Source: a virus (taxonomy: Duplodnaviria; Caudoviricetes). Taken from it: a DNA stretch of 52,197 nt. Positions 7,801 to 33,886 of this stretch are shown here, piece after piece. The stretch is taken from IMG/VR virus record IMGVR_UViG_3300027779_000040, positions 1 through 52,197 of that record; one strand, written 5' to 3'. The notes beneath the pieces were generated by a model that saw only the letters and a list, made by a program, of their open reading frames with translations, did not search any database and was not told the DNA's origin. Both the position numbers and the translations under genes were made by a program. Every line of letters starts with the position of its first letter. Positions within the stretch are counted from its first letter, which is position 1.

Positions 7801-9507
7801 GGGTCAAGTGCCCCATATAAAATATTTGATAGCCTTCCCGGTACTATAGCATTTTGGGATATAACCCTTGGTACACCTGCTTATTCTACTGTTGCCGCAA
7901 AGCAAAGAGTAAAACGATGGTCTCTTGAAAATGGTAGTGGTGATGATGGTATTACTTCAACGTATGAGTCTCTTCAGTTACTTTCTCCCAATAAGGGGGA
8001 GTTAAATATTATGGGAATGACACCTGCTAATTATTCAATTCCAATTTTAACAACAACTAAAGAAGCATCTTATCAGTTAACATCAGAAGTTTCAGAGGAC
8101 GCAGACTACGAATGGGAAAAGGGAGAGAAATTATGGTATAGAATATCTTTTTTATACGATGGATTCCAAGAAAGTCCATTATCATCTGTGATGACAACTG
8201 TAACCCAACCTGCCGCTACTACAACTCTTCCTTGGAGAGCAAAAATAACTTTAAAATTACATAAGAATGCCACAGATGTAATGAATAGGCGTATAAGTCA
8301 TGTTCAGTTATATAGGTCAATGGGTGCCGAATCAGATATAGATGCCCCAGAATTTTATAGATTAGTGAAATCTGTACCATTAGTGTCATCTGACTGGACT
8401 TTTACTGACCCAGATTGGACTAAGGTAATATACGATAAGAAAGATATGTTTGCTTCTTATGAAGAGCTGACAGGAATGCCAGAGACGTTACAGGACACTC
8501 AGATACATTATGGAGTATCGGCTAATCAGAGTGGTTTTCTTTTCATAACTGATTGTTGGCACAAGGAAAGTGGAAAACTACCCAACTATATTTTTAGGTC
8601 AAAGCCGGGTAAATTTAATATATTTGACTGGTCTTCTGACTATGCTGTTCTTCCAGAGAGACCCGTTGCACTTGCTGGCTTTGCAGGTAAGATATGGGCT
8701 TGGTCTAAGAGTTCTATGTACAGGATTAACCCATCTAACCTTGTTATCGAAGATATATTTGAAGGCATAGGATGTTCTAATGAGAGTTCAGTTGTAGTGA
8801 CTGATTATGGAATGTTTTGGGCGGACGAGAATATGATTTTTAAACATGACGGTTCTAAGACTATAAATATTGGTACACCTATTATTGCTGGTGACCCAGA
8901 TTGGTCTTGGAGAGCTAAGAGAAAAAGCTATCCATCAAAACTTGTTTTTGATTTTGCTAACAAACAGTTGTTATGTATCTTTAAGCCAAATTCAAATCTA
9001 AATACACATGGGTCCTACGCTTGGGCTTATCATGTGGATAGAAATAGGTGGGACTTATACGATTTTAAACAGTCATTGAATGGGGTATCTCTAGATGTGG
9101 ACGTACTTGCCCTTGATAATGCTGATGATGGAAGTGTCATTTTTTCTACTCAGGGGAATGGTGTACAAAAGTTTAGAGGTGGTTCGTCTAGAAGAATGTG
9201 GCAATTTCTTTCAAAGTCTATCACTTGCGATACACCAACTCTAAAGAAAGTCTTCTATAAATTAAGGGTAAACATAAAAGAAGGTACTGTCAGCAGGATA
9301 TACCAATTTGATAATAATGCTCAAAGTTCTTTAGCAATTTTAACTTCAGCAGATACTCACAACCCTTTGAAAGAGAAATTCATAGTAGGTGGTAATAATG
9401 ACCCCAACAGAAAAGCAACAAATTTAACTTTTAAATTAATAGGTGCAGTTGGAGCTGTAGTTGATTCAGTGGGCACAATATTTAGAAGACAAGGGATGCC
9501 TAAGTAA
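4825..9507 (+). CDS. Large tail nozzle/stabilisation-like protein (P22 gp10-like C-terminal part)
   Basis: 1560 aa, beta-rich; C-terminal ALAGFAGKIWAWSKSSMYRI...GIGCSNESSVVVTDYGMFWAD..IFKHDG...IGTPI pattern; lies upstream of ejection genes. Confidence 0.72.
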   Translation: MAVPQVNQLAASLGNFVSADLQTSTPGIGISGDVDFSSNTEVLLRFTSVSTTTNKVQLKTLNSNWTAEKTLAKGVDTTVSFHGLRLRVDNSDSKYQVGDIIKVNYVYNDKSYSHMDCIQRADNYDIYAYSSTGDGSVYYYANANTAGGVVKKLGRATSRTGQVVTDTHGQQMYWGFGPDPASPPMWSGYPQHVQFNKENTGEVAWENGEVDLLGAYDSLHDMCVIRHYDHYGGSNTTATLGAGQTNHWGFGIERDKKVIHIFYYRNIRQSADYTTVAERPGNWILIKTINGASSGLKSSQSITTDGRSIFILDMVGNGLIKIFTPTFTPSTSGSTQGNPWSSSGGVKQSAFTSLVSTQDFSLEAPESHVSLIGCYWSSIRINSWHDPVNTRTATNANNQTKSSTSTYTTNGIFLDDVYYDDKIWISKHRDMELNRFVCTESTIDQSLIFLGGLSNIYSTNVAIDTDAGSVKLLSYMPNLGNQSSYKLHASYDSLNTQIQNEVDFFNNQGKVGVLESYEQPFVNVNKSGVMGFVMTTGLWEQDSSSEEFPNAALGGTNDKLGALNMRRWEDGTSGTTGQDTFNLGGTFDGIDPSPNIADSFHTAQNPCVPSFAKGMMGREYNGFGDEYDTDDDSGGSSTSKVYYFYGDGLVDNSHNKTLGGNHAVSWGNHSGSTIENPFPDGIRVDGRFGNGPGYDNSSHQSTHWSFVMKNPQTQLYVVHSHRINTGNAAGAVAQQVTFCKETNLCPSGEFGQKTLQFPILEPYVKWHEAGESIVAYQSGFVSARLVDMDPESASGAQHLFVSYTKDNQSQILRSVDLQNVDFLNPLDRSIFTAGYGKVRMANHTNTTKANVNEPLLFSTGAGDDIIRGKGTDIGGGAKNSGGSPTNYYAPKDYILGSRTTGFTQGAMEEESSNFSIPEEAGTGLYNGGMFLFEVKDGHPSPSDNHMYPAQNEASNKPVTSGEGVAGADAAVVSDYSRSWFLNLQCLAYDSSSGSSAPYKIFDSLPGTIAFWDITLGTPAYSTVAAKQRVKRWSLENGSGDDGITSTYESLQLLSPNKGELNIMGMTPANYSIPILTTTKEASYQLTSEVSEDADYEWEKGEKLWYRISFLYDGFQESPLSSVMTTVTQPAATTTLPWRAKITLKLHKNATDVMNRRISHVQLYRSMGAESDIDAPEFYRLVKSVPLVSSDWTFTDPDWTKVIYDKKDMFASYEELTGMPETLQDTQIHYGVSANQSGFLFITDCWHKESGKLPNYIFRSKPGKFNIFDWSSDYAVLPERPVALAGFAGKIWAWSKSSMYRINPSNLVIEDIFEGIGCSNESSVVVTDYGMFWADENMIFKHDGSKTINIGTPIIAGDPDWSWRAKRKSYPSKLVFDFANKQLLCIFKPNSNLNTHGSYAWAYHVDRNRWDLYDFKQSLNGVSLDVDVLALDNADDGSVIFSTQGNGVQKFRGGSSRRMWQFLSKSITCDTPTLKKVFYKLRVNIKEGTVSRIYQFDNNAQSSLAILTSADTHNPLKEKFIVGGNNDPNRKATNLTFKLIGAVGAVVDSVGTIFRRQGMPK

Positions 9508-11534: not shown

Positions 11535-12824
11535 ATGGGATACGCAGACCAAGTATTACAAAGAGCCGGATTAGGTGGGGAGACACAAAGACTCCAACAG
11601 GCTATGTTGCAAAGTGAAGGGATGAAGGGTGCAACAAGATTTTATAAAGCTGTAGAAATGTACTACAATGACCCTGCGTCTTTTAGTAATGAAGCTTGGG
11701 ATGAATTGCAAATTATGGCGTCTCAGCATGGAATCAGAGTTCCGTCCAATCCTAATGATAAGGCTACTGCTCTAGAGAACGTAGGGGCATCAATCATGGG
11801 CGCAATAGATGGTATAGTCCTTGACTTGATACCTGATTCTTTATACTCAAGTAGGCGCACAGAGACTGCTCGTATGGCAGGTCAAATTACAGGAGTCATA
11901 GGCTCAGTAGTAGGTTCTTTAGGGGCTATGGGACTTATGAGAGGTGGAATGCATGGATTGTCAAGGGCTGGTAGCTACATAGCCGCTAGGCTTGGTGCAA
12001 ATCCATCTGGTGCAGTTGCTATGAAAGGTGCAATAGATGCGGCTAAAAAAGTAGGCGGAAATAAGGCTGTAAATTGGGTAGCTAGTAACATGACCTTGCC
12101 GGGTATACTCACTAAGTGGGGACCATCCGCAGTTACAAGTTTTTCACAGCTTACAAAACGATTTGGTTACCCTTTAACTGGTAAATTTGTTAAGGAAGCT
12201 ACTAAACAATATGGAGACGATGTAGCAGGGAGACTTGTTCAAATTGCTAAGACGGGCTCTGTCGATGATGTAGTTGCGGCATCTGCTAAATACGGAGATG
12301 ATGTAATCATCCAAGCTAAAGAGTCTCTAAAGAGAATGGGCAAGGTAGGGGATGATGTATCTGTAGATATAGCAATGCAAGGAACAAAGGTTCCTGATAT
12401 AGCAACGAGTAAGGTACAGGCAATAATTGATAAGGTAGGTGGAGTGACTGCCAAGGGTGCTGGAAAAGAGTTTGACCCAACTAAGATAGCTCAGATGAGT
12501 ATGTTTGATGGTGGAGCCGCAGGACAAGTTTCAATAGCACAGGGCAAAGGCTTAATAAATGCTCTTAAGGAAGGTATGTCACAGGGTAAGGGGATACAAG
12601 AAATTATAAAAAAATCTGGATTAGGAGGTAAGCCTGCTAAGACTTTAGAAACATTATGGAAAGACCCCACACAGAGGAAAGACCTTTTAAAACTTATGGC
12701 TGACACGAGTAGAGACCAGCCCGGAATGATTGGAGATGTAATGAATCTCATTGGGTTGGGAGTAGTTGGAGGTATCTCCACATACGATGCTGTTTCTGCA
12801 AGCTCTGGTAGGGAAGATTTTTAA
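11535..12824 (+). CDS. Probable ejection protein (A/G/K-rich with amphipathic/TM segments)
   Basis: Composition, position, and N-terminal module shared with the virion RNAP. Confidence 0.65.
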   Translation: MGYADQVLQRAGLGGETQRLQQAMLQSEGMKGATRFYKAVEMYYNDPASFSNEAWDELQIMASQHGIRVPSNPNDKATALENVGASIMGAIDGIVLDLIPDSLYSSRRTETARMAGQITGVIGSVVGSLGAMGLMRGGMHGLSRAGSYIAARLGANPSGAVAMKGAIDAAKKVGGNKAVNWVASNMTLPGILTKWGPSAVTSFSQLTKRFGYPLTGKFVKEATKQYGDDVAGRLVQIAKTGSVDDVVAASAKYGDDVIIQAKESLKRMGKVGDDVSVDIAMQGTKVPDIATSKVQAIIDKVGGVTAKGAGKEFDPTKIAQMSMFDGGAAGQVSIAQGKGLINALKEGMSQGKGIQEIIKKSGLGGKPAKTLETLWKDPTQRKDLLKLMADTSRDQPGMIGDVMNLIGLGVVGGISTYDAVSASSGREDF

Positions 12825-15800
12825 TGTCAACTGGCAGTTACTATCCTGAAGAAATAGAAGGGGAACACTTTAAACCATTCGTTGATGAAGGTACAATAAA
12901 GGGGCTGATTCAGCATTATAAAAATGACCCAAAGCCATTTTCCGAAGACAAATTAAAGACACTCGAGCTTCATGCTCAGCATTATAAACTTCCCTTCGCC
13001 AGAAGTGATGCCGACCAACACGGTAGAGTTTCTGGTATTCTTCAACAGGCTGGAGCCGGATTTTGGTCTGGCTTTACGACCTTTAATGTAGGCGAAGAAC
13101 CGAGAGATGAATGGGAGGGGATAGCTCGTAGTATAGGGCATCTTGCTGGATTTGTTGGTTTCATCCCCTCCATACCTAAGAAAATATTAGCAACTCTTCC
13201 TAAAGCATCTAAACTAAGAACTATGTCAATGGCATTGGCAAAAGTTAAAGGACAATCTGTGCCTATGCTTGGTGCTAAGTTAGTACAGGACAAGGTAGCC
13301 CCGATAGCTAATAAAGCTTTCGCTCAAGCTATGGCTATGAGAGGTGCGGCAACAGCTGATGCGGCTGGATTTTTAAATCAAGGATTAGTAAAAGATTTAA
13401 TTGGTGGGGCATTTCATCTTGGTGTAGCTAGTTCTATAAGTTCGTGGCAGTATGGTATAGACGAAATGATGAGGTCGTTCATAGGTGGTGCGGAAACAGG
13501 TTTTGTTTTCAGAGGGATAGGTAATGTTGTCCAGACGGGAAGTAAAGCGGCTGACGCATCCATAAGAATGGTAGCATCTAGTGCCTATACAGGCTTGCCA
13601 GCTACTATGAGAGGAGCTACAACTCCTGAACAGGTATACGAATATCTCCTCGGTGCCTATTTCGGTTTAAAGGAAATGCCCTACCATAAAAGAGATGCAC
13701 AGAAACTTATAGGTAAGGCTTTTAAGGAAGGCAAGGCTGGACAACCTATAGAATTGATGCCTGAATTTGGTGAAATGGACTCCACCACTAAGAAAAATAC
13801 TATTGAAATGGCTGAGAAGATATGGGGTGAAGTATCTGCGGCTGGAGGTGCTACTCCAATTACGGGTAATATCATGTCTTATGAATTGATGAATAAGTTT
13901 GGATTCAATATTGAAGAAGCAGAGAAAATCGCTAAGGAGTATATTGAGCGTGGTGGAACCCTTAAAGATATAGAACCATTCTTAGATAAGCCTATAACTG
14001 ACAATGGTGAGTTACGGAAGTCACAGAGAGGTTCACAAGAAGACCTTGATATGGAAGTATCTACTGACTCGTCTTCTTATATGTCAGTTCAACAGAAGTT
14101 GGTTAATTATATACAGAATACTTTAGGTTATAAATATACCGAGATGAAACCTAGAGAGCAACAAGATGCAGTTCTTGAAGATGCTATGGGTCTACAGAAA
14201 ACATGGCTAGAAATTTTAAAGAAACAAAGAGTAGAGATAGCTGATAATGATTTCAAAGATGTCTCTCCTGCTGGGGCTACTAATAAAATGTTGGAGCATT
14301 TAGCAGAGAATCTAGGCGTTGCTCCTACAGAAGCTGATTGGAACTTTTGGAGAAATAGGGAGATTCAATCTCTTCAGTTATCTAATCAGCCCGTAATATC
14401 TGCTAGTATAGATTTCAATGGAGCCCTTAATGTTTATCAGTTAAATCCAGAGAGACCAATGAACCTTGCTGGAAATATGAAATATGTTAAGCAAGAACCT
14501 CTGTCTATGGAAGACGCTTATGGGAGAGCATATACAAGGGAAGGCTATGACCCTGCTGAACTAAGGGGTGGTGCTATACACCAATTTCTTGACCATGCTG
14601 TAGTCCAAGATTCATATACTGGCAAGACTAAAGACATGAGTCTACTAAGGTTAAAACAACATTTCTTTGGTGAGCAGATGAGAAGAGTTGGCGAAGTAGA
14701 CGAGCAAACAGGAACTGAATTTCAATATACAGATGCTACTGCTAAAGCTGAAAAAGCATTTAATAACTTTCTCTATGGAGTAATGGACGCACAGTGGAAT
14801 AGGAAAGAATCAAAAGGCGGTGCTCCTAATCAAATGTATTACTTTGGTGGAAGAGGAGATGCGGAGAGATTATACTTTGTAAAGGTTCATCCAACCGTTG
14901 CTAATATTCGCACTATTAGTGAAGGCAGATTGAAATCTCTAACTAATGAAATAAATAAAGTGTCTGCTAAGATTGGCAATATAGAAGTGACTGAAAGTGG
15001 TAAGACAAGGAATGTAAAACTTAAAGATATATTTAATTCAGAGTGGGCTCTTTTTCAAACGACTGTTAATAAAGGAAAGACTGGAGAGTTTAAGAAAAGA
15101 GGAAATGAAATGTTTGCTTCGGCATTTCTATCCAATATAATGTATGAGTTAGATATGAATGGCTTTGAGATGAAGAAGGGCATAAGACCTAGCGAGATTA
15201 AAAAGTTCTATGCTACGATAGGCGATAGTAAAAATGACTTTATTGATACTGCTAAAGCTTTCAATAAGAGAGCACAAATCTGGTTGAATACTGGTGTATC
15301 CCAAAATAAAGATATGATTATCCCTGCTCTACAAGCCGCAGGATGGGATGATAAAACAACAGCAGAAGGTAAAGCTAAAGTTCTTATAATAAATGACAGA
15401 AAGATGGCTGATGAAGTAGGCGTCATGGCTAAGAATTTAGAAGAAGGCACTGATGGTGCTTTGTTTATGACTTCCGAATATATGCTTGCAACAAATATTG
15501 ATATGGGGCTACCCAACGAAGGACATAGTAACAAAAGTTTTATTGTTTCCCCCAACAAGCGCAAAGGTGCAATGCTGGGTAAGTACATGATACATGAAGC
15601 AGACCCAGAGATGGCAAAGTGGATGCGTAAAGAGAAGGTACATATTATAGCCTACAAGAGTGGTTTAAAGCAGAGAGGCACAAGAAAGAGCAGTGACGTT
15701 TATTATAAACCACATGGAAAAGGGTATGAGTTTAGTGATGGCTGGAAAGACTCTGTACATAGGATAAATATGGCTGACATTAAGACAGTCATTACCGAAA

Positions 15801-18800
15801 AGACTGATAATCACTTTCTTCACCCACAAAAGATACCTAAGCAGATGCAGAGTCTCCTTACAGAATTCTCATTCAATCCTGTTAAGCCTGAGATTATAGA
15901 TGATTTTTTTAATACTACATCAAGGGAGAGATTCTTTGGGAATAGGGTTATAAACGAAGAAGCAGAAGCTTACTTAGCCAACCCATCGAAAGAAGCAAAG
16001 GAATCTCTTATAAGAAACCTTGATGAAATAGGCATACCTACTGTATTGAAAATGTTAAAGAATCCTAAGACATCAGAGTTTGCTGTAGAAGCGTATAGGA
16101 AAATGCTATCTAAAGAACAAGAAGTAGCTAATGCAGAGTTTTCTGAAGGCGAGATTGAAAAAGCTACATTTGAAATGCAGAATGATACCAGACAAGAGTA
16201 TAGGTCAGCACATGATACAATTATGAATTTATCAAGTGACAAATCTCTTGCGGCTAGTATGCATAAGTCGGTAAAACATTATCGTTCAAATGTTATAAGG
16301 AATTATCTTCTTAATCAAGTAACTAGACCTACGATAAAGAACTCTTTTATATCAAGGATGCGACCTTATACCCCTTGGATGTGGGAACAGAGAGGAAAGT
16401 ATGGTCCTACTGCTAAGTTAAATGAAACAGGGGGGGACAAATTGTTCTTCCTTGATAATGGTTTTAAAGAATTACCATTAAAAAGCCACGTTTTTGGTGG
16501 CAAGGTCTCGGGAAGACTGGGTGAGATGAAGTTAGGTGAAGCTTGGGAGAGTTATGTGGACGGTAAGTTCGATAAATTTCCCAAGCTCAAAGCTGAAATG
16601 GAAGATGTGCTTGAAGCTGTTTTAATGAGAGTTCCTATGGACTCAATGTCAGGAGCGAGAGTATTGAACTTTGCTGGGTTCACTGGTGTAGATGGGTTAG
16701 GGGTCTTATTACATCCAAGGGTAATGAGAGCATTGGGTGGAGCAGACCTTGATGGTGACAAGGCTTGGGGATTTTTCGGTGGTAAAAGCGAGAGTGGTGC
16801 TGGTGAAGGTATGAAAAAGTCTTGGAAGAATATGTATAAAGACCAAGAACTAGAGTATGGAGAAGTAGGCACTAGTGCTAAGAAATTAATTGACCCAGTA
16901 ACTGGTAAACCATACTATGAGGAATTTTTAGATGACAGAGACCCATTAGCAAAGGATAGAATAGAAAACCCCGGACTAAGGTGGTCTCCTATGGCTAGGA
17001 TGACAGCATCATTGGGTGCGGCTCAAGGTCGTAATATGTTAGGACCAGCTGTTGTTAATAAAGCTGTTATAAGTGCGGCTTTCTCTGAATTAATGAGCAG
17101 ACCAAATCAAAGTTATAGCTATACTTATGAAAGTTTTAATGGGGAAAAGAGAAAAATATTAATGACAGCTAGGTCTGACCCTAAAGATATTAAGCGTCAG
17201 AGAGAAATGGGGAAAGTTTCTATTCACCTTCCAGCTGACCCTATGGATGAAGCTGGGTTGAAAGATATGAATTCTTTCTTTAGCTTGATGGCTGATAGTG
17301 CTTTTAAATACAAAGATGTCACTGACCCCAATAGACATTTCGAATTATCAAACGACCCTAAGTCAAGGGAGTGGATGGGAGACCATTCTACTAAACGTGC
17401 AGGGTTGAATCAACATTTCTCTAAAATTAATCAAGTATTATATGGTAGGAACTGGGCAGAAGAAAGAAGATGGACACCGGGTGAGATTCATAGTGGGCTG
17501 TCAAGTTCATGGGATTCATTACACCAAGGAGAGAAACAGGGTGGACTCTATAAAAACTTAGCTAAGTTATTTCATAATCTTGATTGGACAGAAGGGATTT
17601 TCTTTCGTGTGAATGAAACAAAACTTAGAGAGCTTTATAAGAACTTTCATAAGGAGTGGGAAAACAATAGAGAGTTACAGGACATTCTCCAAAGAACTGG
17701 TAGGAGCGTATGGAACAATGAGAAAGAGAAGTTTAATCCTTTACTAGAATTTGTACTCACAAGAAAACTACATGATGAGAAAGTATTGAAGTCTTATCTC
17801 TTAGATACTAAGCAAAATGAAAAATTATTTGATGCTTTCCCCCAGTACACAGAGAGAAAAGGTTATAATCCTAGGAATTTAAGACAACGTGAAAGAATTC
17901 TTAGAGACATGGTACATAAGGCTGAAGACTTTGTTGTCAATGACCTTAGTGACATGGTGTCTATGAGATTTATTAGGAAATTCATGGAGCCTATTATGGC
18001 AAGGAACAATGCTAAGGGTGAGAAGATTTCTAAAGAAAAAATTATATTAGGTCTTCATCATATGAGTGAAGATATAAAGTCTCAATCTTATTTTAAGGGC
18101 ATAGATAGAAAGAATGAGTCAGGTTTACAGGGTAATGAGTTTGAATTAACAGCTAGTCAGCGTGAGTTTTTTAAGTTAATGGGCTTAGAAAGGGAGGTAG
18201 AACAAAAAGATTCTGCTATGTTAGACCAGTTCCAGATAGATGCTAAAATTAGTACTCTGAAATTAAATATGACTGACCCTGAGAAAAGATTGTTTGATGC
18301 GTTTCTTTTAGGAACATTAAAAAAGGGTACTCAAACCGAGATAAATAAAGCTACTGAACATGCTAAACAAACATACGTTAATGAAGAAAAATTTCCACCC
18401 CAAGTATTAGAAGCTTTGGAGATTTTAAGGCAAAAAGGGGCTAAAACAGCCACATCTAACCTAGGGTTCGTTTCTAGTTCGGTCTCTAAGGGCATGAAAA
18501 GAGCCTTCTGGAAAGAATATGAGAAGTTATTTGATAGTTCTACTAACTTTTTCAGTAAGAAAGAGACTAATGATATAAAGAAAGACGCTCTAAAGGGTGA
18601 AGCTGAGCTTTCAAAAGAAGAACCAAGGAGTATTCTCGACAAAGAAGGCAATGTTATCAAGGGTACTGCTCTTGAAGAAGCCACATTTGATGTAGAAACC
18701 CAGACATACTTAGAAGAGGCGCATCCTTTTAAAGGTATTCTTTCGTCTAAAGCTTTGAAGGGTCCAAAATTTAAATTAAAGGGTGAGGCTATGGAGATAG

Positions 18801-21800
18801 TTCTTTCCTTACAAGAACATTTCCGTAACAAGTTTAACAATATGACTGGTCGTGGCATGAACAAGCTTGTTAGAACGATGTTTAATAAAAACATTAATGA
18901 CATGAACTTAGCTGACTGGCGTACTATGGATAACATACTATCAGAGATTGATGGTGGTCAGTGGTGGAGAAAAACTTTGAAGTATGTAGATGACAATCAA
19001 TTCCTACCATCTATGACCCCGTTTCATCATCACATTTTTCCTGAAGCTACTAACAAAGACTTGATGAGAAAAGAAATCATCCTAGTCGCTAAGCGTGGTA
19101 TCTATAAAGATAAGCATGGCAATGTATTAACTGGTGATACTGCTCAGCCAACACAGATAGGTGAGATTTTACAACAGTTCATAAACATGAATAAAGAATG
19201 GGCTACTGGTGTACACGAGCAACGAAAGAATGAAATTAGTTCGGAGCTTTCTCCTTACTTAGAGTCTATTGAACAAGGACCTACACTATGGAGAATAGCT
19301 GTTAGGAGAATGGAGCAAGGAATGACATGGCATCTCAGAGAAAAATATCAGAATGATGCTACTTGGGCTCTTTTAAAAGAAACATATGAGAAACCTTGGA
19401 GAGACATACAAAAGAAACACGATTGGGAAAATCTACAGAAAGAAACATTCCAAGTAATTACAGCAAACGGCTCCAAGACGATGACTGGGCTTGATGTTGT
19501 TGAGAAAATTACAGATACTATAGAAATATGGAATAAGAAAAATCATAAGCTTATCCGTGGTGACGTAGAAGTAATTGACAGTTACCTTAATATGATAGGG
19601 AGAAGTTATCATTCAGACTCTAAGTCTAAATCGCTATGGAAAAACCCTGAGAATTTTATAAACGATAAAGAAAATCTGCCAAACTTTAGAGTTGAAGACC
19701 CTAATGAATCTAAATACCTTTCTGATGTATTTAAGAAGACATTCTGGTGGGGTGTTAAATCTGAAGGTGGAAAATCTGAAGCAGAGATAAAGAAAGCACA
19801 GGGTGAGTATCAAAAATTATACAATCAATATAAACAAGAGAAGTATATAGCTAATATTCGTGGTCTAGCGGCTGTACTTGATTATCGTCATCAGTTAAAA
19901 TTTGCTGAGGGTAAGGAAGATGTCCAAAACTCTAGAAAAAGAATGATGAATAGACTATTCAAAGATATTCTTGAAGCTAATGATAAGGGTGAAGTATTTC
20001 ATCAGAATTTAGGAATAGATGGTCTTCGCATATTATCAAGAGAGATTATGTTAGCACAGGTTAGAGACCCTAAGGATAGGGAACAAATAGCTAACTCTAT
20101 GTCAGTACATACTACTGGCTCATACCCATCAAGGATATACTTTCCACACTTGATGTTTGATAGGAAAATAGCTGAAGCACAAATGGAGAAAGCTCTTGAA
20201 GTCATATGGGCTGACCCTAGTAAAGATATTAAGGATAAGAACAGGGAGATGGATAGAATAATCTTCCACACTAGACAAATGACTGGTGATTGGATTCCAC
20301 AGACTGATGTATCAGACCAATGGCAAGCATTGAATGAAGGACTACAGAGGATAGGAGAGAAGAAAAAGAATAGAATTCCTAGAGAACATATGAATTGGTT
20401 CAAGACACATAAACGTGCAGGTAATCAGTACTCTAGAAACTCTCATATACCCGGTTGGAATATTGAGTTTGAAGCATACGTTCAGTACATGAAGAACCTT
20501 ACGGATGTACACTATCAATTAATAAGTCAGTTGATGTCTCGTACTTCTATGATAAGATGGAAAGAACGGATGGCTGAAAGGTTTGAACATCCAGATACAA
20601 AACAAGTTAAGAAGGAAGACCAGCAATTAATTAATAGATGGGAAAACTTTTTCAATCTATATATCACTCAATCTATGGGCTTACCTTCACAGATACCTGA
20701 GCATGTCCTTAATGACCCCGGCATGAAAATTAAAGGGACTCCTTATGCTTGGTTCGCTGACAGTGAAGTTAAGAAAAGATTAAATAAAATAGCAAAAAAA
20801 CTGGGACTAGATAAGAATATTATAAAAGAAAAGTTTCCAGAGGTTGCGGCAGAATATCCAGAGATGGCAGAGAAATTTGACTTTGCTGACCTACAAAGAT
20901 TCAGTGCTTTAGAGGCTAAATTAGAATTAGCGGCTCTACTAGCTCACCCTAAATCATCCGTTACAAACTTGTTTGGTGGTACGGTAAACACATTAATATC
21001 AACTGGTTGGCAACACTTTAAAAATGCTCGTGATGTAGAGTATCTTATGAAGAATGTTAACTCAAAGTTTACAAAGAAACAGGACTGGGAGGATTGGGTC
21101 ATCAAGCTTGGTGTAGTAGAGGAGTTCTTACTTTATGAAGCAGGGATTAATCCAAAGTTTAAGACTGGTAAGTGGAAGAACTTTATGGATGATGCTATGG
21201 CTAGGTTGAGTAAAGACCCTGAAATGGCTGATACAACCTTAACATCCCTTGCTAGTAAGCATGGAATAACTGAGTCTGTATTTTCTAAAGCGGCTTGGTT
21301 CATGAGAAGACCTGAACGTACACTACGGCGTGACGCTTTTTTAGCTCACTATCTACAGGCTAGAGAGAAATTTGGTGGTGCTTTCCAAAAGTTTGACAAC
21401 CCTATACTTATACAGATGGCTAAGAAGGGTGTGAAAGGTACACAATTCTTATATAGTGCACCATTTAGACCGCCTTTTTCAGCAAGTTCCGCTGGTAAGG
21501 TGTTCACTAGGTTTCAGACTTGGGCTTGGAACTCTGTCAGATTTAGAAGAGAAATTATAGAAGAAGCTGATGCTCGTGGATGGCAAAAAGGTTCTGTTGA
21601 GTTCGAGAGGTATAAACGTATGGCTACTGCTGACTTATTCATGCTTGGTATGGCTAATATATTCTTGTACTCTATCTTTGATAACGCACTACCAGCTCCT
21701 TGGAATTGGATACAAGACACAGCTGACTCATTGTATGGTGATGAAAGAGAAAGAGAGAGGGCTTTCTTTGGTCACCCACTCGGTCCTGTTCAAATTATTA

Positions 21801-22102
21801 CACCGCCTGTCTTACGTTTATTACCAGAGATGTTTAAAGCTATGATTGAGGATGATTACTCTAAACTAGCAGGTTATACTATTCCAAGTTACTTCCCTTT
21901 TGGAAGAGTGGCGAGAGACTTGGTTGGTCCCGGTGGTTTATATGAGAATCCTTATAGAGGAGTAGAAAAACTTACTGGTTTCCCTTACATGCAAGCGGCT
22001 AGAGAGTTCGGAGCATACCGTGAAAAAGAAGGTAGATACCCTAGAGGAATATTAGATTTAATTTATCAGCCATTCGAAAGAGATAAAGAACCTTCTGACT
22101 AA
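12824..22102 (+). CDS. Giant virion-associated single-subunit two-barrel (double-psi beta-barrel) RNA polymerase
   Basis: 3092 aa; catalytic GGADLDGD (DLDGD aa 1308-1312, nt 16745-16759) preceded by MRVP; upstream TDG...GKYMIH...SGLK motifs; located in the ejection module. Confidence 0.85.
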   Translation: MSTGSYYPEEIEGEHFKPFVDEGTIKGLIQHYKNDPKPFSEDKLKTLELHAQHYKLPFARSDADQHGRVSGILQQAGAGFWSGFTTFNVGEEPRDEWEGIARSIGHLAGFVGFIPSIPKKILATLPKASKLRTMSMALAKVKGQSVPMLGAKLVQDKVAPIANKAFAQAMAMRGAATADAAGFLNQGLVKDLIGGAFHLGVASSISSWQYGIDEMMRSFIGGAETGFVFRGIGNVVQTGSKAADASIRMVASSAYTGLPATMRGATTPEQVYEYLLGAYFGLKEMPYHKRDAQKLIGKAFKEGKAGQPIELMPEFGEMDSTTKKNTIEMAEKIWGEVSAAGGATPITGNIMSYELMNKFGFNIEEAEKIAKEYIERGGTLKDIEPFLDKPITDNGELRKSQRGSQEDLDMEVSTDSSSYMSVQQKLVNYIQNTLGYKYTEMKPREQQDAVLEDAMGLQKTWLEILKKQRVEIADNDFKDVSPAGATNKMLEHLAENLGVAPTEADWNFWRNREIQSLQLSNQPVISASIDFNGALNVYQLNPERPMNLAGNMKYVKQEPLSMEDAYGRAYTREGYDPAELRGGAIHQFLDHAVVQDSYTGKTKDMSLLRLKQHFFGEQMRRVGEVDEQTGTEFQYTDATAKAEKAFNNFLYGVMDAQWNRKESKGGAPNQMYYFGGRGDAERLYFVKVHPTVANIRTISEGRLKSLTNEINKVSAKIGNIEVTESGKTRNVKLKDIFNSEWALFQTTVNKGKTGEFKKRGNEMFASAFLSNIMYELDMNGFEMKKGIRPSEIKKFYATIGDSKNDFIDTAKAFNKRAQIWLNTGVSQNKDMIIPALQAAGWDDKTTAEGKAKVLIINDRKMADEVGVMAKNLEEGTDGALFMTSEYMLATNIDMGLPNEGHSNKSFIVSPNKRKGAMLGKYMIHEADPEMAKWMRKEKVHIIAYKSGLKQRGTRKSSDVYYKPHGKGYEFSDGWKDSVHRINMADIKTVITEKTDNHFLHPQKIPKQMQSLLTEFSFNPVKPEIIDDFFNTTSRERFFGNRVINEEAEAYLANPSKEAKESLIRNLDEIGIPTVLKMLKNPKTSEFAVEAYRKMLSKEQEVANAEFSEGEIEKATFEMQNDTRQEYRSAHDTIMNLSSDKSLAASMHKSVKHYRSNVIRNYLLNQVTRPTIKNSFISRMRPYTPWMWEQRGKYGPTAKLNETGGDKLFFLDNGFKELPLKSHVFGGKVSGRLGEMKLGEAWESYVDGKFDKFPKLKAEMEDVLEAVLMRVPMDSMSGARVLNFAGFTGVDGLGVLLHPRVMRALGGADLDGDKAWGFFGGKSESGAGEGMKKSWKNMYKDQELEYGEVGTSAKKLIDPVTGKPYYEEFLDDRDPLAKDRIENPGLRWSPMARMTASLGAAQGRNMLGPAVVNKAVISAAFSELMSRPNQSYSYTYESFNGEKRKILMTARSDPKDIKRQREMGKVSIHLPADPMDEAGLKDMNSFFSLMADSAFKYKDVTDPNRHFELSNDPKSREWMGDHSTKRAGLNQHFSKINQVLYGRNWAEERRWTPGEIHSGLSSSWDSLHQGEKQGGLYKNLAKLFHNLDWTEGIFFRVNETKLRELYKNFHKEWENNRELQDILQRTGRSVWNNEKEKFNPLLEFVLTRKLHDEKVLKSYLLDTKQNEKLFDAFPQYTERKGYNPRNLRQRERILRDMVHKAEDFVVNDLSDMVSMRFIRKFMEPIMARNNAKGEKISKEKIILGLHHMSEDIKSQSYFKGIDRKNESGLQGNEFELTASQREFFKLMGLEREVEQKDSAMLDQFQIDAKISTLKLNMTDPEKRLFDAFLLGTLKKGTQTEINKATEHAKQTYVNEEKFPPQVLEALEILRQKGAKTATSNLGFVSSSVSKGMKRAFWKEYEKLFDSSTNFFSKKETNDIKKDALKGEAELSKEEPRSILDKEGNVIKGTALEEATFDVETQTYLEEAHPFKGILSSKALKGPKFKLKGEAMEIVLSLQEHFRNKFNNMTGRGMNKLVRTMFNKNINDMNLADWRTMDNILSEIDGGQWWRKTLKYVDDNQFLPSMTPFHHHIFPEATNKDLMRKEIILVAKRGIYKDKHGNVLTGDTAQPTQIGEILQQFINMNKEWATGVHEQRKNEISSELSPYLESIEQGPTLWRIAVRRMEQGMTWHLREKYQNDATWALLKETYEKPWRDIQKKHDWENLQKETFQVITANGSKTMTGLDVVEKITDTIEIWNKKNHKLIRGDVEVIDSYLNMIGRSYHSDSKSKSLWKNPENFINDKENLPNFRVEDPNESKYLSDVFKKTFWWGVKSEGGKSEAEIKKAQGEYQKLYNQYKQEKYIANIRGLAAVLDYRHQLKFAEGKEDVQNSRKRMMNRLFKDILEANDKGEVFHQNLGIDGLRILSREIMLAQVRDPKDREQIANSMSVHTTGSYPSRIYFPHLMFDRKIAEAQMEKALEVIWADPSKDIKDKNREMDRIIFHTRQMTGDWIPQTDVSDQWQALNEGLQRIGEKKKNRIPREHMNWFKTHKRAGNQYSRNSHIPGWNIEFEAYVQYMKNLTDVHYQLISQLMSRTSMIRWKERMAERFEHPDTKQVKKEDQQLINRWENFFNLYITQSMGLPSQIPEHVLNDPGMKIKGTPYAWFADSEVKKRLNKIAKKLGLDKNIIKEKFPEVAAEYPEMAEKFDFADLQRFSALEAKLELAALLAHPKSSVTNLFGGTVNTLISTGWQHFKNARDVEYLMKNVNSKFTKKQDWEDWVIKLGVVEEFLLYEAGINPKFKTGKWKNFMDDAMARLSKDPEMADTTLTSLASKHGITESVFSKAAWFMRRPERTLRRDAFLAHYLQAREKFGGAFQKFDNPILIQMAKKGVKGTQFLYSAPFRPPFSASSAGKVFTRFQTWAWNSVRFRREIIEEADARGWQKGSVEFERYKRMATADLFMLGMANIFLYSIFDNALPAPWNWIQDTADSLYGDERERERAFFGHPLGPVQIITPPVLRLLPEMFKAMIEDDYSKLAGYTIPSYFPFGRVARDLVGPGGLYENPYRGVEKLTGFPYMQAAREFGAYREKEGRYPRGILDLIYQPFERDKEPSD

Positions 22103-30343: not shown

Positions 30344-31017
30344 ATTTTATCTCCTTCGTTGTTAATTTTAGGGATTACTAAGGTTTGTTTATCTACCGAG
30401 AGAGGCGATAATCCAGCCCAAATATATGAAAAATAAGGACGATTTGCAACCAGTTTAAACACCTTACCCATACCTAAACTTGCTACCAAAGAGGCAGTAA
30501 ATATAGTATGTTTAGCGGTGCAAGGTTCAGCAATATCAGTACTTGGAGGATTCCATGTGTCTATGAAATCATCATTCTCTTTCGTTACTGTTATCACTTC
30601 CATTGACAATGCTCCCATACGCATATCAATCAACCATTCACGGTTCTTCATCCCAAGCCAAGTCCTATAAACATCAAGTCTTGTATCCATATTATCTGGT
30701 CCCATCATTACACATGGCTCCAGTTCTTTTCCCATTTCAAAGCGTTCTTCTTTAAAATCACCATCCGAACCATATTCATTAGCCGTATGGAGTGCACATT
30801 CTGCCTTACTTAAACCAAGATACTTTATTGGGTAAGATGTTGTAGACAAATTATGTTCAGAAAGCTTATCATGGTCATATCCATGTATGAAATTAAAACC
30901 CATTAGTGAACAAAGCTGGACAAGGGAGGAACCAATCCCCCCTAATCCAATTATAGAAACAGATTCTAATTTTTCCTGAGGTATTAAGTCAGAATTTCTT
31001 AAAAATCTATTTTCCAT
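30340..31017 (-). CDS. ThiF/E1-like ubiquitin-like-protein activating enzyme
   Basis: Start reassigned to ATG 31017 (GGAG RBS); RFLRN, IIGLGGIGS, YDHDKLSEHNL, G.SK, GPDN..TR, candidate catalytic Cys in EPC(166)TAK. Confidence 0.9.
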   Translation of the reverse strand: MENRFLRNSDLIPQEKLESVSIIGLGGIGSSLVQLCSLMGFNFIHGYDHDKLSEHNLSTTSYPIKYLGLSKAECALHTANEYGSDGDFKEERFEMGKELEPCVMMGPDNMDTRLDVYRTWLGMKNREWLIDMRMGALSMEVITVTKENDDFIDTWNPPSTDIAEPCTAKHTIFTASLVASLGMGKVFKLVANRPYFSYIWAGLSPLSVDKQTLVIPKINNEGDKI

Positions 31018-31924
31018 TACTAAGTTCTCCATGTTCTTTAACGTCAATTTGGTTAATATTGAAATAATGCCATGGCTCAAGACCCATTTTGTTCATTTCA
31101 ATCTTAAAATGATACCAATTAATAGTTCCTAATTGGAATTCTTCCCCAATCGCCATTACTTCTTCCACTTCTGCTTTTGTTAAAGACTCTACTATTGCTA
31201 TTGCATCTTCTTCAAAACCATAAGACATGCCAGAACCATAACCTACTCCATAAGGCGTGTCGTATTCGGTTGAAAGCGCTGGATTGGGTTTTGCTAAAGG
31301 GAGATTAGTCTGGTTTTTATCAACAACCGAAGTTATCGGAGTATGAACTTTACCATAACCATTCAAAGAATTGTGTCCACCCCAACTAAAAGTAGTCTTG
31401 GCTTCTTTTTCAATCTTCTCAGCAATCTCCTTCCATTCTGGTACTACTTTTACACCATTAGCTACAATGATATCTTCTTTATCCAGCTTATAGAGTGATT
31501 TCTTCTTGTATTGGTCGAGATAAGAAAACGCAAAAGCATATTTCTCCTTTGTACTCGCTACTACTAAACTACAGTAAAAGTTTTCTTCAGGAGCCATGTC
31601 TTCTAATGTCCCTTCATCTGTTCCACTAAAGAATGCACCCATAGTATGATGTGAATGAATTAATCCTATGCAACATTTCTTCAATTTAGGATGCTTTTGA
31701 TAAGACTCTCTTATTATTTTAGCAAAGTCTTGTGCGTCCCAATCTGTAGCCGTTCCATGACCTAAATCCAATGGATGAAAATGAAGAAGGCTAAAAGTCG
31801 TTGGAAAACCATCTTCATCTTTGTTAATTTGATACCATGCTGGTCCAGACCATTCCTTAGAAGGAAACTCGCCCAGAAAGTACTGTATCTTGTTGTTTAT
31901 CGTTTTTGAAAGTGTCAATATCAC
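31007..31924 (-). CDS. JAB/JAMM (MPN+) metallo-isopeptidase
   Basis: E24(EWSG)...H90-S-H92-x7-S100-x2-D103; GTG start with AAGGAG RBS. Confidence 0.9.
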   Translation of the reverse strand: MILTLSKTINNKIQYFLGEFPSKEWSGPAWYQINKDEDGFPTTFSLLHFHPLDLGHGTATDWDAQDFAKIIRESYQKHPKLKKCCIGLIHSHHTMGAFFSGTDEGTLEDMAPEENFYCSLVVASTKEKYAFAFSYLDQYKKKSLYKLDKEDIIVANGVKVVPEWKEIAEKIEKEAKTTFSWGGHNSLNGYGKVHTPITSVVDKNQTNLPLAKPNPALSTEYDTPYGVGYGSGMSYGFEEDAIAIVESLTKAEVEEVMAIGEEFQLGTINWYHFKIEMNKMGLEPWHYFNINQIDVKEHGELSNGK

Positions 31925-33491
31925 CTTGTATCTCCTTTATGTAATGTGTTAAACTTGCTACTTTGTTTTCTCCACATGCTATTTTGCATGCAGACATTGC
32001 TGATTCAATCCATTCTATGTTATATGCGTCTGGACCTAAAGGATTATCCCCTTCAGCCTTATCTTCATTGTAACCTTGAAACATTTCATCCCATTCTTCT
32101 ACTGAACGTGGAAAAATTGTTTCCCATAGTCGAGTCATTATTTCAAATTTACAAGCATCTACCAAATAACCATCGTTCCTTTCATGGTACCTTTTTCTTA
32201 CTTCAGTAATGATAGTATGAAGTAAATAACCATCGGTTTCTGTTAGCATTTTAAAGAACGCTATGCGGAATCGAGTTGCAGGATGGTAATTGTCTTTATG
32301 GTGAGGATATCGGCTTGGTTCAGGATATAGAAAAGAAGCAAAAGCATTTCTGTATCTTTTCATTTTACCTAAAACCCATTGCATAGTCTGTCTACCATCT
32401 TTTCGTGTAGAACGTTTGATATCAGAATGACTTTCATGATACATAGTTATATCCGAATCTAATTCTGCAATTCTGTAACCATACTCTTCCCAACCTCTGT
32501 TGCAAAGTAAATCCATTCTTTTTGCAAGAGCCATATATTTAGCGGCACCTTCAAAAGTAATAGATTTTTCTCCATTTACAGCATCGAAAGTCCCATAAGT
32601 AGCCCTTCCACGAGAATTAAAACATTGCATAGCACGATTGCATAGATATAAAGTTGAAAAGCATACCTTTAAAATAAAAATAAGGTCTGTTTCCGTTTTA
32701 CATTTTTCTGCTAACATTGGTAGAATCTCTCTAAATTCTTCAAATTCAGTAGTACTACCCACCATGTGTCCCAATTTATCCATCTGTACGCCTGATAAGA
32801 TTATTTTATTATTCAAATCTTTCAAGGGCTTAAACCGATTCATGTTAAAGTAGGCTGAGTGTCTGTTCCAAGTAAAGAGAAAACTCTTTATTAATGTAAA
32901 ATACTGTAGAACATTGCCCTGTGCCGCACTCTTATACATCATGTTATCGAATGCTCCTAAACATGGTTCTGTATTAGTTATATGAGGATGACGAGCATCT
33001 CTCCACCATAAATCTGGTTTTGTTTTTGCTCTGTCAGGATTAACATAACCAAAATGATTTAATTCAAGATTCTCAAATCGTAATCGGGGGACACAGCTTG
33101 AGTCACTACCTTTTGTTAATATGCAATAAATAGTTCCAAAATTCTGGACACTTGTTCCCCTTAACTTCACATTGTCAAATTGTATTATCATATATGACCT
33201 TGATATAGGATGAGGGTAGTTTGGATTAAAATACTTACCATTATTTGAATCACCACTAACTTTCCAGTGAACAATATTGAAATGTTTAGTAATCAATTCA
33301 AACTCTTGCATACGTTTGGTTCCATCAAGTGTCTTGAAAGATGGAAAGCATTCTAAGAATACTCGTAATAATTTTGCTTTTGAAAGCACTACTGGTGAAT
33401 CACGAGCATCTTGGTTTACTCCGTAATTACCCATATGAAGAGGATTCCAATGTTCCATCGGACTCTTCTTAAACACCTGTTTTAAATTCAT
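31857..33491 (-). CDS. E2/UBC-like conjugating domain protein with long helical C-terminus
   Basis: H168PHITNTEPC177LG followed by VLQYFTLIKSFLFTWNRHSAY, matching UBC HPN(I)...CL and its following helix; flanked by Ubl and JAB genes. Confidence 0.72.
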   Translation of the reverse strand: MNLKQVFKKSPMEHWNPLHMGNYGVNQDARDSPVVLSKAKLLRVFLECFPSFKTLDGTKRMQEFELITKHFNIVHWKVSGDSNNGKYFNPNYPHPISRSYMIIQFDNVKLRGTSVQNFGTIYCILTKGSDSSCVPRLRFENLELNHFGYVNPDRAKTKPDLWWRDARHPHITNTEPCLGAFDNMMYKSAAQGNVLQYFTLIKSFLFTWNRHSAYFNMNRFKPLKDLNNKIILSGVQMDKLGHMVGSTTEFEEFREILPMLAEKCKTETDLIFILKVCFSTLYLCNRAMQCFNSRGRATYGTFDAVNGEKSITFEGAAKYMALAKRMDLLCNRGWEEYGYRIAELDSDITMYHESHSDIKRSTRKDGRQTMQWVLGKMKRYRNAFASFLYPEPSRYPHHKDNYHPATRFRIAFFKMLTETDGYLLHTIITEVRKRYHERNDGYLVDACKFEIMTRLWETIFPRSVEEWDEMFQGYNEDKAEGDNPLGPDAYNIEWIESAMSACKIACGENKVASLTHYIKEIQGDIDTFKNDKQQDTVLSGRVSF

Positions 33492-33509
33492 AATTCACTC
33501 CTGTGATAT

Positions 33510-33611
33510 ATCAAACAAGCCCCTTAACTAACTGCCAAGTCTTCCAGACTAATTAAATTAGTTTGAAATTAGTTTCAGAGGCTCATTTGATTGGTTCGTC
33601 TCTTACGAGAC
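33510..33611 (-). promoter_or_regulatory. Structured intergenic RNA between Ubl and E2 genes
   Basis: gtctc-GTAA-gagac hairpin plus 15-bp stem atcaaatgagcctct/aggggcttgtttgat with G-U pairs on the minus strand. Confidence 0.6.
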
Positions 33612-33622
33612 TGATTTAAAAA

Positions 33623-33886
33623 CTATGCACCTTTTGCAAGGTTTACAGCTTTTCCTGAAAGTACAACATCAATAGATGTCGCACCCGACTCCACTTTGGA
33701 CTTCTGGAAAGAGACATAATCTCCATCCCGAAGGTCTTGTGTGGCGGTGGCTTCGCTTTCATTCACGAAGATTTTAACGCCATCCAAGGACAAGTCCCAA
33801 GTTTGAGCAATGGATGCCGGTGTATTCGACTCCATTTCATGCACCGTACCACCTGAATGATACGATATTGCAAAGATATTAGCCAT
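33623..33886 (-). CDS. Ubiquitin-like (beta-grasp, ThiS/MoaD-like) protein with C-terminal extension
   Basis: 87 aa; IFVNESEA....DLRDGDYVSF....VESG68 fits the ThiS/MoaD pattern VN...L.DGD.V.f...V.GG; AGGAG RBS; first gene of the E2-JAB-E1 cluster. Confidence 0.8.
   Translation of the reverse strand: MANIFAISYHSGGTVHEMESNTPASIAQTWDLSLDGVKIFVNESEATATQDLRDGDYVSFQKSKVESGATSIDVVLSGKAVNLAKGA

Follow-up and report, generated by a model that had tools for sequence, protein, structure and literature searches.

At which residue does the ubiquitin-like protein (Ubl) of a marine tailed phage end once it is mature? The question is raised by IMG/VR record IMGVR_UViG_3300027779_000040, a complete virus record of 52,197 bp (CheckV completeness 100%), which is taken here over its whole length, is referred to as the window, and carries terminase, portal, major head protein and endolysin genes. 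A small gene on its minus strand encodes an 87-residue product that contains the glycines G68 (in KVESG), G78 (in VLSG) and G86 (in AKGA), ends in KGA with A87 as its last residue, and has no GG at its C-terminus. An initial annotation, which was right about the open reading frame (ORF), its sequence, the positions of the three glycines and the missing terminal GG, took the product for a Ubl pro-protein and proposed that a neighbouring JAB peptidase cuts it after any of the three glycines. The check that it called for, namely which glycine is invariant among homologues, was run and answers G68. G68 is most probably the maturation and activation residue, with one site and not three. The 87-residue product is probably the precursor of a 68-residue ThiS/MoaD/SAMP-like Ubl, which would be matured at G68 and then activated and conjugated by the other proteins of the gene cassette in which it lies.

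The conserved end of the Ubl

A word-based search with the window Ubl found three close relatives. The same sequence gave one chance-level match (E=10) by tblastn against 50,697 phage records and no related loci when used as query among viral contigs. P0003, one of the three relatives, which has 69 residues and the C-terminus KVTSGC, reached four viral loci (L002-L005), whose Ubls continue after SG with SSKG, SDIVDFALR or SDCIVALALDSQ, an early hint that the protein can do without what lies past G68. Comparison of a six-sequence profile with 1.84 billion cluster representatives yielded 37 matches at E≤0.001, and the 33 that were retained are proteins of 40-111 residues. Four long matches made of multiple stretches (P0026, P0030, P0043 and P0044) were set aside as spurious; three of them were read and resemble ankyrin-type or immunoglobulin-like repeats, while P0043 was left unread. 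The resulting alignment of 36 homologues omits P0009 and P0039, which leave the family pattern past residues 54 and 42, respectively, probably owing to a frameshift or a truncation, and P0033, a fragment of 40 residues.

In this alignment G68 is the sole invariant column and S67 is found in 35 of the 36 sequences; the conserved block stops at S67-G68 and no conservation is seen past it. Representatives and loci were also pooled into 50 distinct Ubl sequences, whose core ends in S-G in 49 cases and in N-G in one, so the residue before the conserved glycine is serine and not a second glycine. The length of what follows is variable: 0 residues in 8 sequences, 1 in 28, 2 in four, 3 in one, 4 in two, 19 in two, 20 in one, and 9, 10, 12 and 14 in one each. 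Altogether at least one extra residue follows the conserved glycine in 42 of the 50, and near-identical Ubls can differ by a one-residue cap, as do L030 (KSGV) and L035 (KSG). Such variable tails of 0-20 residues past an invariant glycine bear out the proposal that the Ubl is made as a pro-protein and that an extension at its C-terminus conceals the reactive glycine.

The other two glycines have a narrow distribution. G78 is limited to three related forms of 87-88 residues (the window, P0002 and L041), and G86 to the window and P0002, L041, the closest long-tail relative, having isoleucine at this position. The 12-nt stretches that encode VESG and VLSG share 6 of 12 bases, and the near-repeat is therefore not a DNA duplication. 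Three glycines within 20 residues are unremarkable, whereas the invariance of G68 exceeds chance. The last four positions before the proposed cut site of the family (P4-P1) follow a V-x-S-G pattern, with V in 39/50, S in 49/50 and G in 50/50 sequences. Three candidate sites thus reduce to G68, invariant in 36/36 aligned homologues and preceded by S or N in 50/50, and the alternative mature forms suggested from VESG and VLSG find nothing beyond the V-x-S-G look of VLSG78. To judge from the alignment, G78 and G86 are lineage-specific tail residues and not alternative maturation sites.

Fold comparisons place the end of the domain at the same residue. When compared with the Protein Data Bank (PDB), the Ubl family profile matched ThiS 2cu3 (E=2e-5), SAMP2 5lda (E=0.021), PF1061 (E=0.03) and MoaD 1vjk (E=0.07); the top match, 8vd6 'CAP REPEAT', was discounted, being a repeated 20-residue match. 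ThiS 2cu3 and SAMP2 5lda align up to profile position 59, after which 8 residues remain in them and 9 in the phage Ubl. Pfam searches with 36 single members of the family matched TGS in eight, ThiS in seven (best 5.5e-5), SAMP2 in five and Ub-Mut7C in four. The AlphaFold2 (AF2) model of the Ubl was compared with 48,161 chains by VIA-align, and all but a handful of the 50 matches listed were read as beta-grasp Ubls, sulfur carriers or TGS domains. The best is MoaD 1fm0_D (Z 6.2, root mean square deviation (rmsd) 3.8, 65 residues aligned), and ThiS 2cu3 (Z 5.7, rmsd 2.3, 57 aligned) and BubA 9eav_C (Z 5.3, rmsd 2.4, 61 aligned) are also among them, together with CysO, TtuB, SAMP1, Urm1, ubiquitin and SUMO. 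VIA-align pairs residues 1-68 of the model with full-length MoaD, ThiS, TtuB, SAMP1 and BubA. The statement of the initial annotation that the beta-grasp pattern ends at G68 agrees with all three lines, that is, the end of the alignment block, the profile register and the structural pairing. The window protein is a Ubl of the ThiS/MoaD/SAMP type, whose core ends at G68.

The 19-residue tail has a predicted local distance difference test (pLDDT) of 30-39 in the AF2 model, and its two halves evolve differently. When the window is compared with L041, the synonymous rate (dS) of the Ubl core is 0.91 and its non-synonymous rate (dN) 0.048, for a dN/dS of about 0.05. Tail codons 69-79 carry 5.8 synonymous and 5.2 non-synonymous differences, which correspond to proportions per site of 0.66 (pS) and 0.22 (pN), in a small sample of 11 codons and three related sequences. 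Nine of these 11 residues are identical, S77 is retained despite a TCA/AGT codon switch, and P0002 shares the segment of residues 70-79. Codons 80-87 are saturated at synonymous and non-synonymous sites alike. The proximal tail, TS(I/V)DVVLSGK, appears from these codon comparisons to be held by purifying selection in this small clade. Since its first ~11 residues are kept by selection, the propeptide is probably more than read-through junk in the clade. A regulatory role is more plausible for it than alternative cut sites, and one might speculate that it is a brake on activation until JAB is made. The licensing step which the initial annotation attached to cleavage is not a family-wide feature, as 8/50 sequences end at the bare glycine, but it is possible in this clade, in which part of the tail is selected.

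The JAB peptidase and the rest of the cassette

The JAB protein matches Pfam Prok-JAB with 24.7 bits (E=2.2e-5), just below the cut-off of 25, and its JAMM catalytic set, E24, H90, H92, S100 and D103, is invariant in 19 JAB homologues. A complex of JAB residues 1-178, Ubl residues 1-87 and zinc was predicted with an ipSAE of 0.80, against 0.00 for the best of three controls. In the benchmark of this score 58 of 80 solved complexes attain the mark, as do 2 of 110 mismatched pairs; solved JAMM-Ubl complexes exist in the PDB, and the score may reflect likeness to them and not this pair. The runs share at least 93% of contacts, with a partner pLDDT of at least 79 and a Ubl chain at 79-81. The confident interface on the Ubl is formed by residues 5, 7, 9-15, 38, 40, 42-45, 57, 59 and 61-70, and the side of JAB includes residues 24, 90, 92, 100 and 103, while Ubl residues 71-87 stay outside the confident contacts. 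JAB is predicted by this model to bind the Ubl with residues 61-70 at its catalytic residues.

Trimming may not be the only task of this enzyme. The three loci inspected in which the Ubl ends in a bare glycine all still encode JAB, and this retention suggests that JAB probably also deconjugates. Its conserved role is probably deconjugation, plus trimming where a cap exists. Most JAB homologues (L004-L036) end in a short aromatic-glycine tail, such as GYGY, GGY, GYRY or EYGY, which might be a docking peptide, and the window copy ends in ELSNGK. The 5' end of the JAB gene overlaps the 3' end of the gene for the E2-like protein by 68 nt in different frames (31857-31924), as it also does in L004, L005 and L041, and this overlap probably explains why the otherwise fast-evolving E2-like protein has conserved C-terminal residues.

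The protein encoded between the Ubl and JAB is assigned as E2-like with moderate confidence. H168, P169, H170, C177 and G179 are the sole invariant columns in 19 full-length homologues and also in 15 N-domains. In the AF2 model of all 544 residues (pLDDT 69) the N-domain is built by a helix, four strands, a long loop with the motif, and helices, which is the element order of UBC/E2 proteins. VIA-align of this model is dominated by the helical C-terminal region, and three matches, all weak, concern the N-domain: 8q5h_5 (Z 4.5), 4nf9_A (Z 4.4) and 7kzp_L (Z 4.4), which we take to be RWD/E2-like folds (SPC25-type, Knl1 and the FANCL N-terminus, respectively). The ESM Atlas lists Prok-E2_D at rank 14 with a score of 0.86, which serves as a lead only. 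The protein has no Pfam, PADLOC or NCBIfam match, and Pfam named no E2 family among its 19 homologues.

The fourth component is a small E1, which matches Pfam ThiF with 39.7 bits (E=4.1e-10, cut-off 28.1). Its GLGGIGS loop, D129-N130...R134 and C187 are invariant in the three sequences aligned. To judge from homologues, its translation probably starts at an internal ATG, either 31032 or 31017. The order Ubl, E2-like, JAB, E1, all on the minus strand, lies within the replication module, and the next genes encode a Sak4-like ATPase and a primase-helicase.

The same cassette recurs in other viral contigs. With JAB as bait 35 viral loci were fetched; JAB and E1 are found together in all of them, and the order Ubl, E2-like, JAB, E1 is seen in 21/21 loci that reach at least ~1.6 kb upstream of JAB, with an intervening gene of 456-700 residues, the other 14 ending at contig edges. 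The window and L041 have the same four-gene order. The cassette was found in viral contigs only and always beside replication genes. Against phages, blastn with the cassette as query gave no matches other than some of 51 nt to crAss-like phages, where the JAB motif is encoded. When 185,579 species genomes were scanned twice for strict JAB peptide patterns, none was found, and the strictness of the patterns makes this weak evidence of absence from cells. The components diverge at different rates: between the window and L041 identity is 64/68 for the Ubl core, 79% for E1, 63% for JAB and 47.5% for the E2-like protein, and between the window and L005 it is 62.5% (whole Ubl), 52%, 47% and 30%, respectively. 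Of the four components the Ubl evolves most slowly and the E2-like protein most rapidly, a pair that resembles a conserved modifier with a diversifying specificity factor.

A Shine-Dalgarno sequence, AAGGAG, lies 7 nt upstream of the pro-Ubl ATG. In a greedily selected ORF set of the window, which includes the terminase and portal genes, TAA closes 35 ORFs, TAG 14 and TGA eight. Read-through or recoding of TAG as the source of the tail was considered and rejected: the 14 ORFs closed by TAG include terminase and portal, so TAG serves this phage as a normal stop codon and the tail is not a recoding artefact. Contigs identical to the window from all three RNA libraries span the whole pro-Ubl ORF, although presence alone is not proof of transcription. 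Their depth is 16-29 over the Ubl and 2-6 for the pieces over E1 and JAB, and contig depth cannot rank genes; the E2-like gene is in part without RNA-contig coverage, from which nothing follows. These contigs end at 33521, 33523 and 33600; a contig from a DNA run also stops at 33525, and for this reason no transcript 3' end is claimed. The spacer from the Ubl stop to the E2-like start has 131 nt (33492-33622, minus strand), and the RNA fold of 33492-33630 has -39.9 kcal/mol (z = -3.95), with none of 200 shuffles as stable. A GC-rich hairpin was read from the sequence at the equivalent intergenic position in the relatives L002-L005, and a terminator scan around the Ubl 3' end and the spacer hairpin found no consensus terminator. 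The hairpin could set differing levels of the Ubl and its enzymes. Elsewhere, the window has two giant plus-strand ORFs, at 12824-22102 (3,092 residues) and 4825-9507 (1,560 residues), and the product of the latter has no PHROG match at 1e-5.

Table 1. Positions in the window of the Ubl gene, its segments and the other cassette features (aa, amino acids).
Feature	Coordinates	Strand	Basis
Pro-Ubl gene, 87 aa and TAG stop	33623..33886	minus	ATG-started ORF
Ubl core, residues 1-68, ending V-E-S-G68; proposed mature form	33683..33886	minus	conservation, profile, fold
C-terminal propeptide, residues 69-87 (ATSIDVVLSGKAVNLAKGA)	33626..33682	minus	not alignable across family
Proximal tail segment, residues 70-79 (TSIDVVLSGK), contains G78	33650..33679	minus	kept in three long-tail relatives
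Hairpin in Ubl to E2-like intergenic region	~33511..33591	minus	RNA fold
E2-like protein, 544 aa: UBC/RWD-like N-domain (~36-215) and fast-evolving helical C-terminal region (~330 aa)	31857..33491	minus	position, motif, model
Motif H168-P-H-I-x5-C177-x-G179, proposed E2 active site	32955..32990	minus	invariant columns
JAB/JAMM metallopeptidase, 305 aa, proposed propeptidase and deconjugase	31007..31924	minus	Pfam, JAMM set, complex model
Minimal E1/ThiF-like adenylating enzyme, longest ORF 246 aa	30340..31080	minus	Pfam ThiF, Gly loop

Proposed maturation and competing explanations

Put together, these components suggest the following route. The JAMM peptidase would dock the beta-grasp body of the Ubl and thread residues 61-70 through its zinc site, so as to cut between G68 and A69 and free the 19-residue propeptide. 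The exposed G68 carboxylate would be adenylated by the ThiF-type E1 of 230-246 residues, and the Ubl would be handed on to Cys177 in the HPH-x6-C-x-G motif of the E2-like protein, from which it would be conjugated to targets during phage replication. The same JAB would probably also remove the conjugates.

Several points weigh against this reading. Cleavage, adenylation and conjugation are all steps that we infer. The window Ubl alone matches no Ubl family at a meaningful E-value in Pfam or NCBIfam, and for this reason its assignment rests on the family profile; its AF2 model has a low confidence (pLDDT 53), and its VIA-align Z scores are modest, at most 6.2 and below 8. The assignment of the E2-like protein is weak, since it rests on the motif, the topology, the three structural matches and the ESM Atlas lead: the active-site loop of its model has a pLDDT of about 40, Foldseek with the 544-residue model gave no match at E≤0.001, and its profile found none among PDB sequences. 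As 8/50 Ubls need no trimming, the conserved role of JAB cannot be maturation alone. Finally, VLSG78 fits the V-x-S-G end pattern and lies in a segment under purifying selection, which makes a second cut conceivable within the clade.

The long tail itself could be neutral read-through, acquired after the loss or shift of a stop and with no function of its own, which is possible but on the whole doubtful. Tail length is labile (1, 4, 9 and 12 residues within the clade of L002-L005 and P0003), residues 80-87 evolve with no visible constraint, and 0-1 tail residues suffice for most members of the family. What stands in the way is the excess of pS over pN across codons 69-79, where 9/11 residues are kept, the serine of the TCA/AGT switch included, albeit in a small sample.

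It is quite improbable that the Ubl is a sulfur carrier of the ThiS/MoaD/TtuB/QbsE type, which serves thiolation, for example of a nucleic-acid base, tags no protein, and is merely trimmed by JAB. A precedent for a sulfur carrier trimmed by a JAMM enzyme is QbsD/QbsE, with CysO/Mec+ as a related case; the nearest relatives of the phage Ubl in sequence and structure are ThiS 2cu3, MoaD, CysO and TtuB, the E1 is of minimal ThiF size, and the cassette lies among genes of nucleic-acid metabolism. Against this, a protein with an invariant HPH...C...G and a UBC-like topology is always encoded between the Ubl and JAB, and the neighbouring genes that were scanned include no rhodanese, sulfurtransferase or cysteine desulfurase. 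A sulfur carrier would likewise be matured at G68.

Equally little probability is given to a tail that is cut by a host protease or carboxypeptidase, or that is kept while the Ubl acts non-covalently, with JAB as a deconjugase only. One-residue caps can be removed by many exopeptidases, and the retention of JAB in the 3/3 inspected loci with a Ubl ending in G would fit such a division of labour. In the complex model, on the other hand, the uncut precursor runs with G68-A69-T70 over the catalytic residues; in three tested systems (BilC, BubCD and Caldiarchaeum Rpn11) the JAMM enzyme of the cassette itself does the trimming; and an invariant glycine at a C-terminus of variable length is hard to explain without its exposure.

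The proposal of the initial annotation that two or three maturation sites (G68, G78 and perhaps G86) give alternative mature Ubls is highly improbable: VLSG78 does fit the V-x-S-G end motif and G78 does lie within the selected tail segment of three long-tail relatives, but G78 and G86 are absent from 47/50 family sequences, G86 is replaced by isoleucine in L041, no duplication is seen at the DNA level, the complex model puts residues 61-70 and not 71-87 on JAB, and a site 10 residues beyond G68 would not be in register, since it is by docking the body of the Ubl that JAMM enzymes and E1s set the position of the tail.

Related systems and what a virus might tag

The maturation at G68 that is favoured here is an ordinary step, JAMM trimming of Ubl precursors being established in Bil, in Bub and for an archaeal ubiquitin. 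BilC cuts BilA between G97 and A98, homologues carry up to nine extra residues, and the JAB protein also deconjugates (10.1101/2023.09.26.559546). With Bil, as described there, the phage cassette shares its four components, that is, Ubl, E2, JAB peptidase and E1, and the pre-processing of the Ubl by JAB at a conserved glycine. It differs in that the phage Ubl is a single 68-residue ThiS-like domain that ends in S-G, with a tail of 19 residues in the window phage, that the E2-like domain is fused to a variable helical region of ~330 residues, and that the genes lie in phage replication modules and not in bacterial genomes, where the two strict-pattern scans were negative. BilD is described as having a separate CYS domain (10.1101/2023.09.26.559546), for which the phage E1, with 230-246 residues, apparently lacks the length. 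In PADLOC the Ubl, E2-like and JAB proteins match no family and E1 matches weakly, and only, CBASS E1-E2 (best 5.9e-5), the presence of Bil models under that name in PADLOC 2.0 being unchecked.

The JAB domain of BubCD (Bub type I) cuts BubAB right after the conserved G229, and Bub has oxyester intermediates, an E1 that lacks a catalytic cysteine and a Ubl fused to E2 (PMC11601596). An operon JAB domain thus cuts a Ubl pre-protein after a conserved glycine there as well, and BubA is among the structural neighbours of the phage Ubl; the phage cassette, in contrast, has invariant cysteines in the E2-like protein (C177) and in E1 (C187), and its genes are separate. In Caldiarchaeum subterraneum a propeptide of nine residues is taken off by Rpn11, and pro-ubiquitin that still has its full length is refractory to E1 (PMC5654768). 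A neighbouring JAMM enzyme trims a Ubl propeptide in that case too, and the licensing logic is the one that the initial annotation proposed. The Caldiarchaeum protein differs from the phage Ubl in being a eukaryote-like ubiquitin with a GG end, served by a RING E3 and encoded on an archaeal chromosome.

In profile and fold the closest proteins are the SAMPs with JAMM1 (SAMP2-PfJAMM1 5lda), ThiS, MoaD and TtuB, in which the reactive C-terminal glycine likewise stands eight to nine residues past the last strand. Archaeal SAMPs, ThiS, MoaD and TtuB carry a free GG at the C-terminus and are not known to work with an E2, whereas the phage Ubl ends in S-G plus a tail and is always accompanied by the E2-like gene. 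NCBIfam PRTRC models score far under their cut-offs on the phage proteins (PRTRC_A 15 bits against 101.8, PRTRC_ThiF 24.7 against 144.75), and the PRTRC cassette of NCBIfam/TIGRFAMs is presumably operon type 6d of Iyer, Burroughs and Aravind (2006). The phage cassette is organised like that operon type (PMC1779556), with the difference that its E2-like domain carries a fused, fast-evolving helical region. The E2 of type 6d is described as lacking the classical histidine before the cysteine (PMC1779556), while the phage protein has H168-P-H before C177, and no ParB was seen at the phage cassette. A literature search found no description of this cassette, although supplements may list such operons. 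It is an uncatalogued, virus-borne variant, and Pfam, PADLOC and NCBIfam name none of its families.

Relatives also exist in cultured phages of Bacteroidota. JAB relatives were found in 74 phage records, which comprise 29 Flavobacterium phages, 29 Bacteroides crAss-like phages and others, and in a six-protein search the JAB and E1 of Kolpuevirus matched the cassette profiles with E-values of 7.5e-23 and 1.9e-23, respectively. Where the window has its Ubl gene, Flavobacterium phage FpV4 has a gene for 289 residues (L042:2344-3213) and Kolpuevirus, which is crAss-like, one for 262 (L001:7523-8308). The N-terminal ~85-95 residues of both proteins look Ubl-like and end in GDFTVFMRPKQVKSGG or KKIKSG, after which 165-205 more residues follow, and the next gene carries H-S-H...C(L/I)G. 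Aligned by hhalign, the Ubl profile gave E=0.0028 and a probability of 11% for the N-terminus of the 289-residue FpV4 protein and no significant match for the 262-residue Kolpuevirus protein, and neither Kolpuevirus protein has a Pfam match. These proteins may be Ubl-fusion precursors, a suggestion drawn from motif and gene position.

A broader picture joins these observations, and it is rather unlikely to hold as a whole. In it the propeptide of the window clade would be a selected regulatory element, whose VLSG mimics the true end and holds the viral Ubl inactive, or occupies JAB or E1, until infection has reached the proper stage, and would thus be the timed switch of a virus-only conjugation system; the same system, identified by JAB and E1, would operate in cultured Flavobacterium and crAss-like Bacteroides phages with precursors in the style of ubiquitin fusions that release two products.

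The puzzle of the three sites dissolves on alignment of the homologues. To know that the active form is residues 1-68 is a practical prerequisite for reconstitution, as the 87-residue ORF expressed without JAB would probably yield an inert protein. The relatives of JAB and E1 in cultured Flavobacterium and crAss-like Bacteroides phages make the system testable at the bench. A virus-borne, uncatalogued variant with a selected propeptide is moderately interesting in itself. The bacterial systems of this kind that are known defend against phages, and a Ubl cassette borne by a phage raises the question of what a virus tags.

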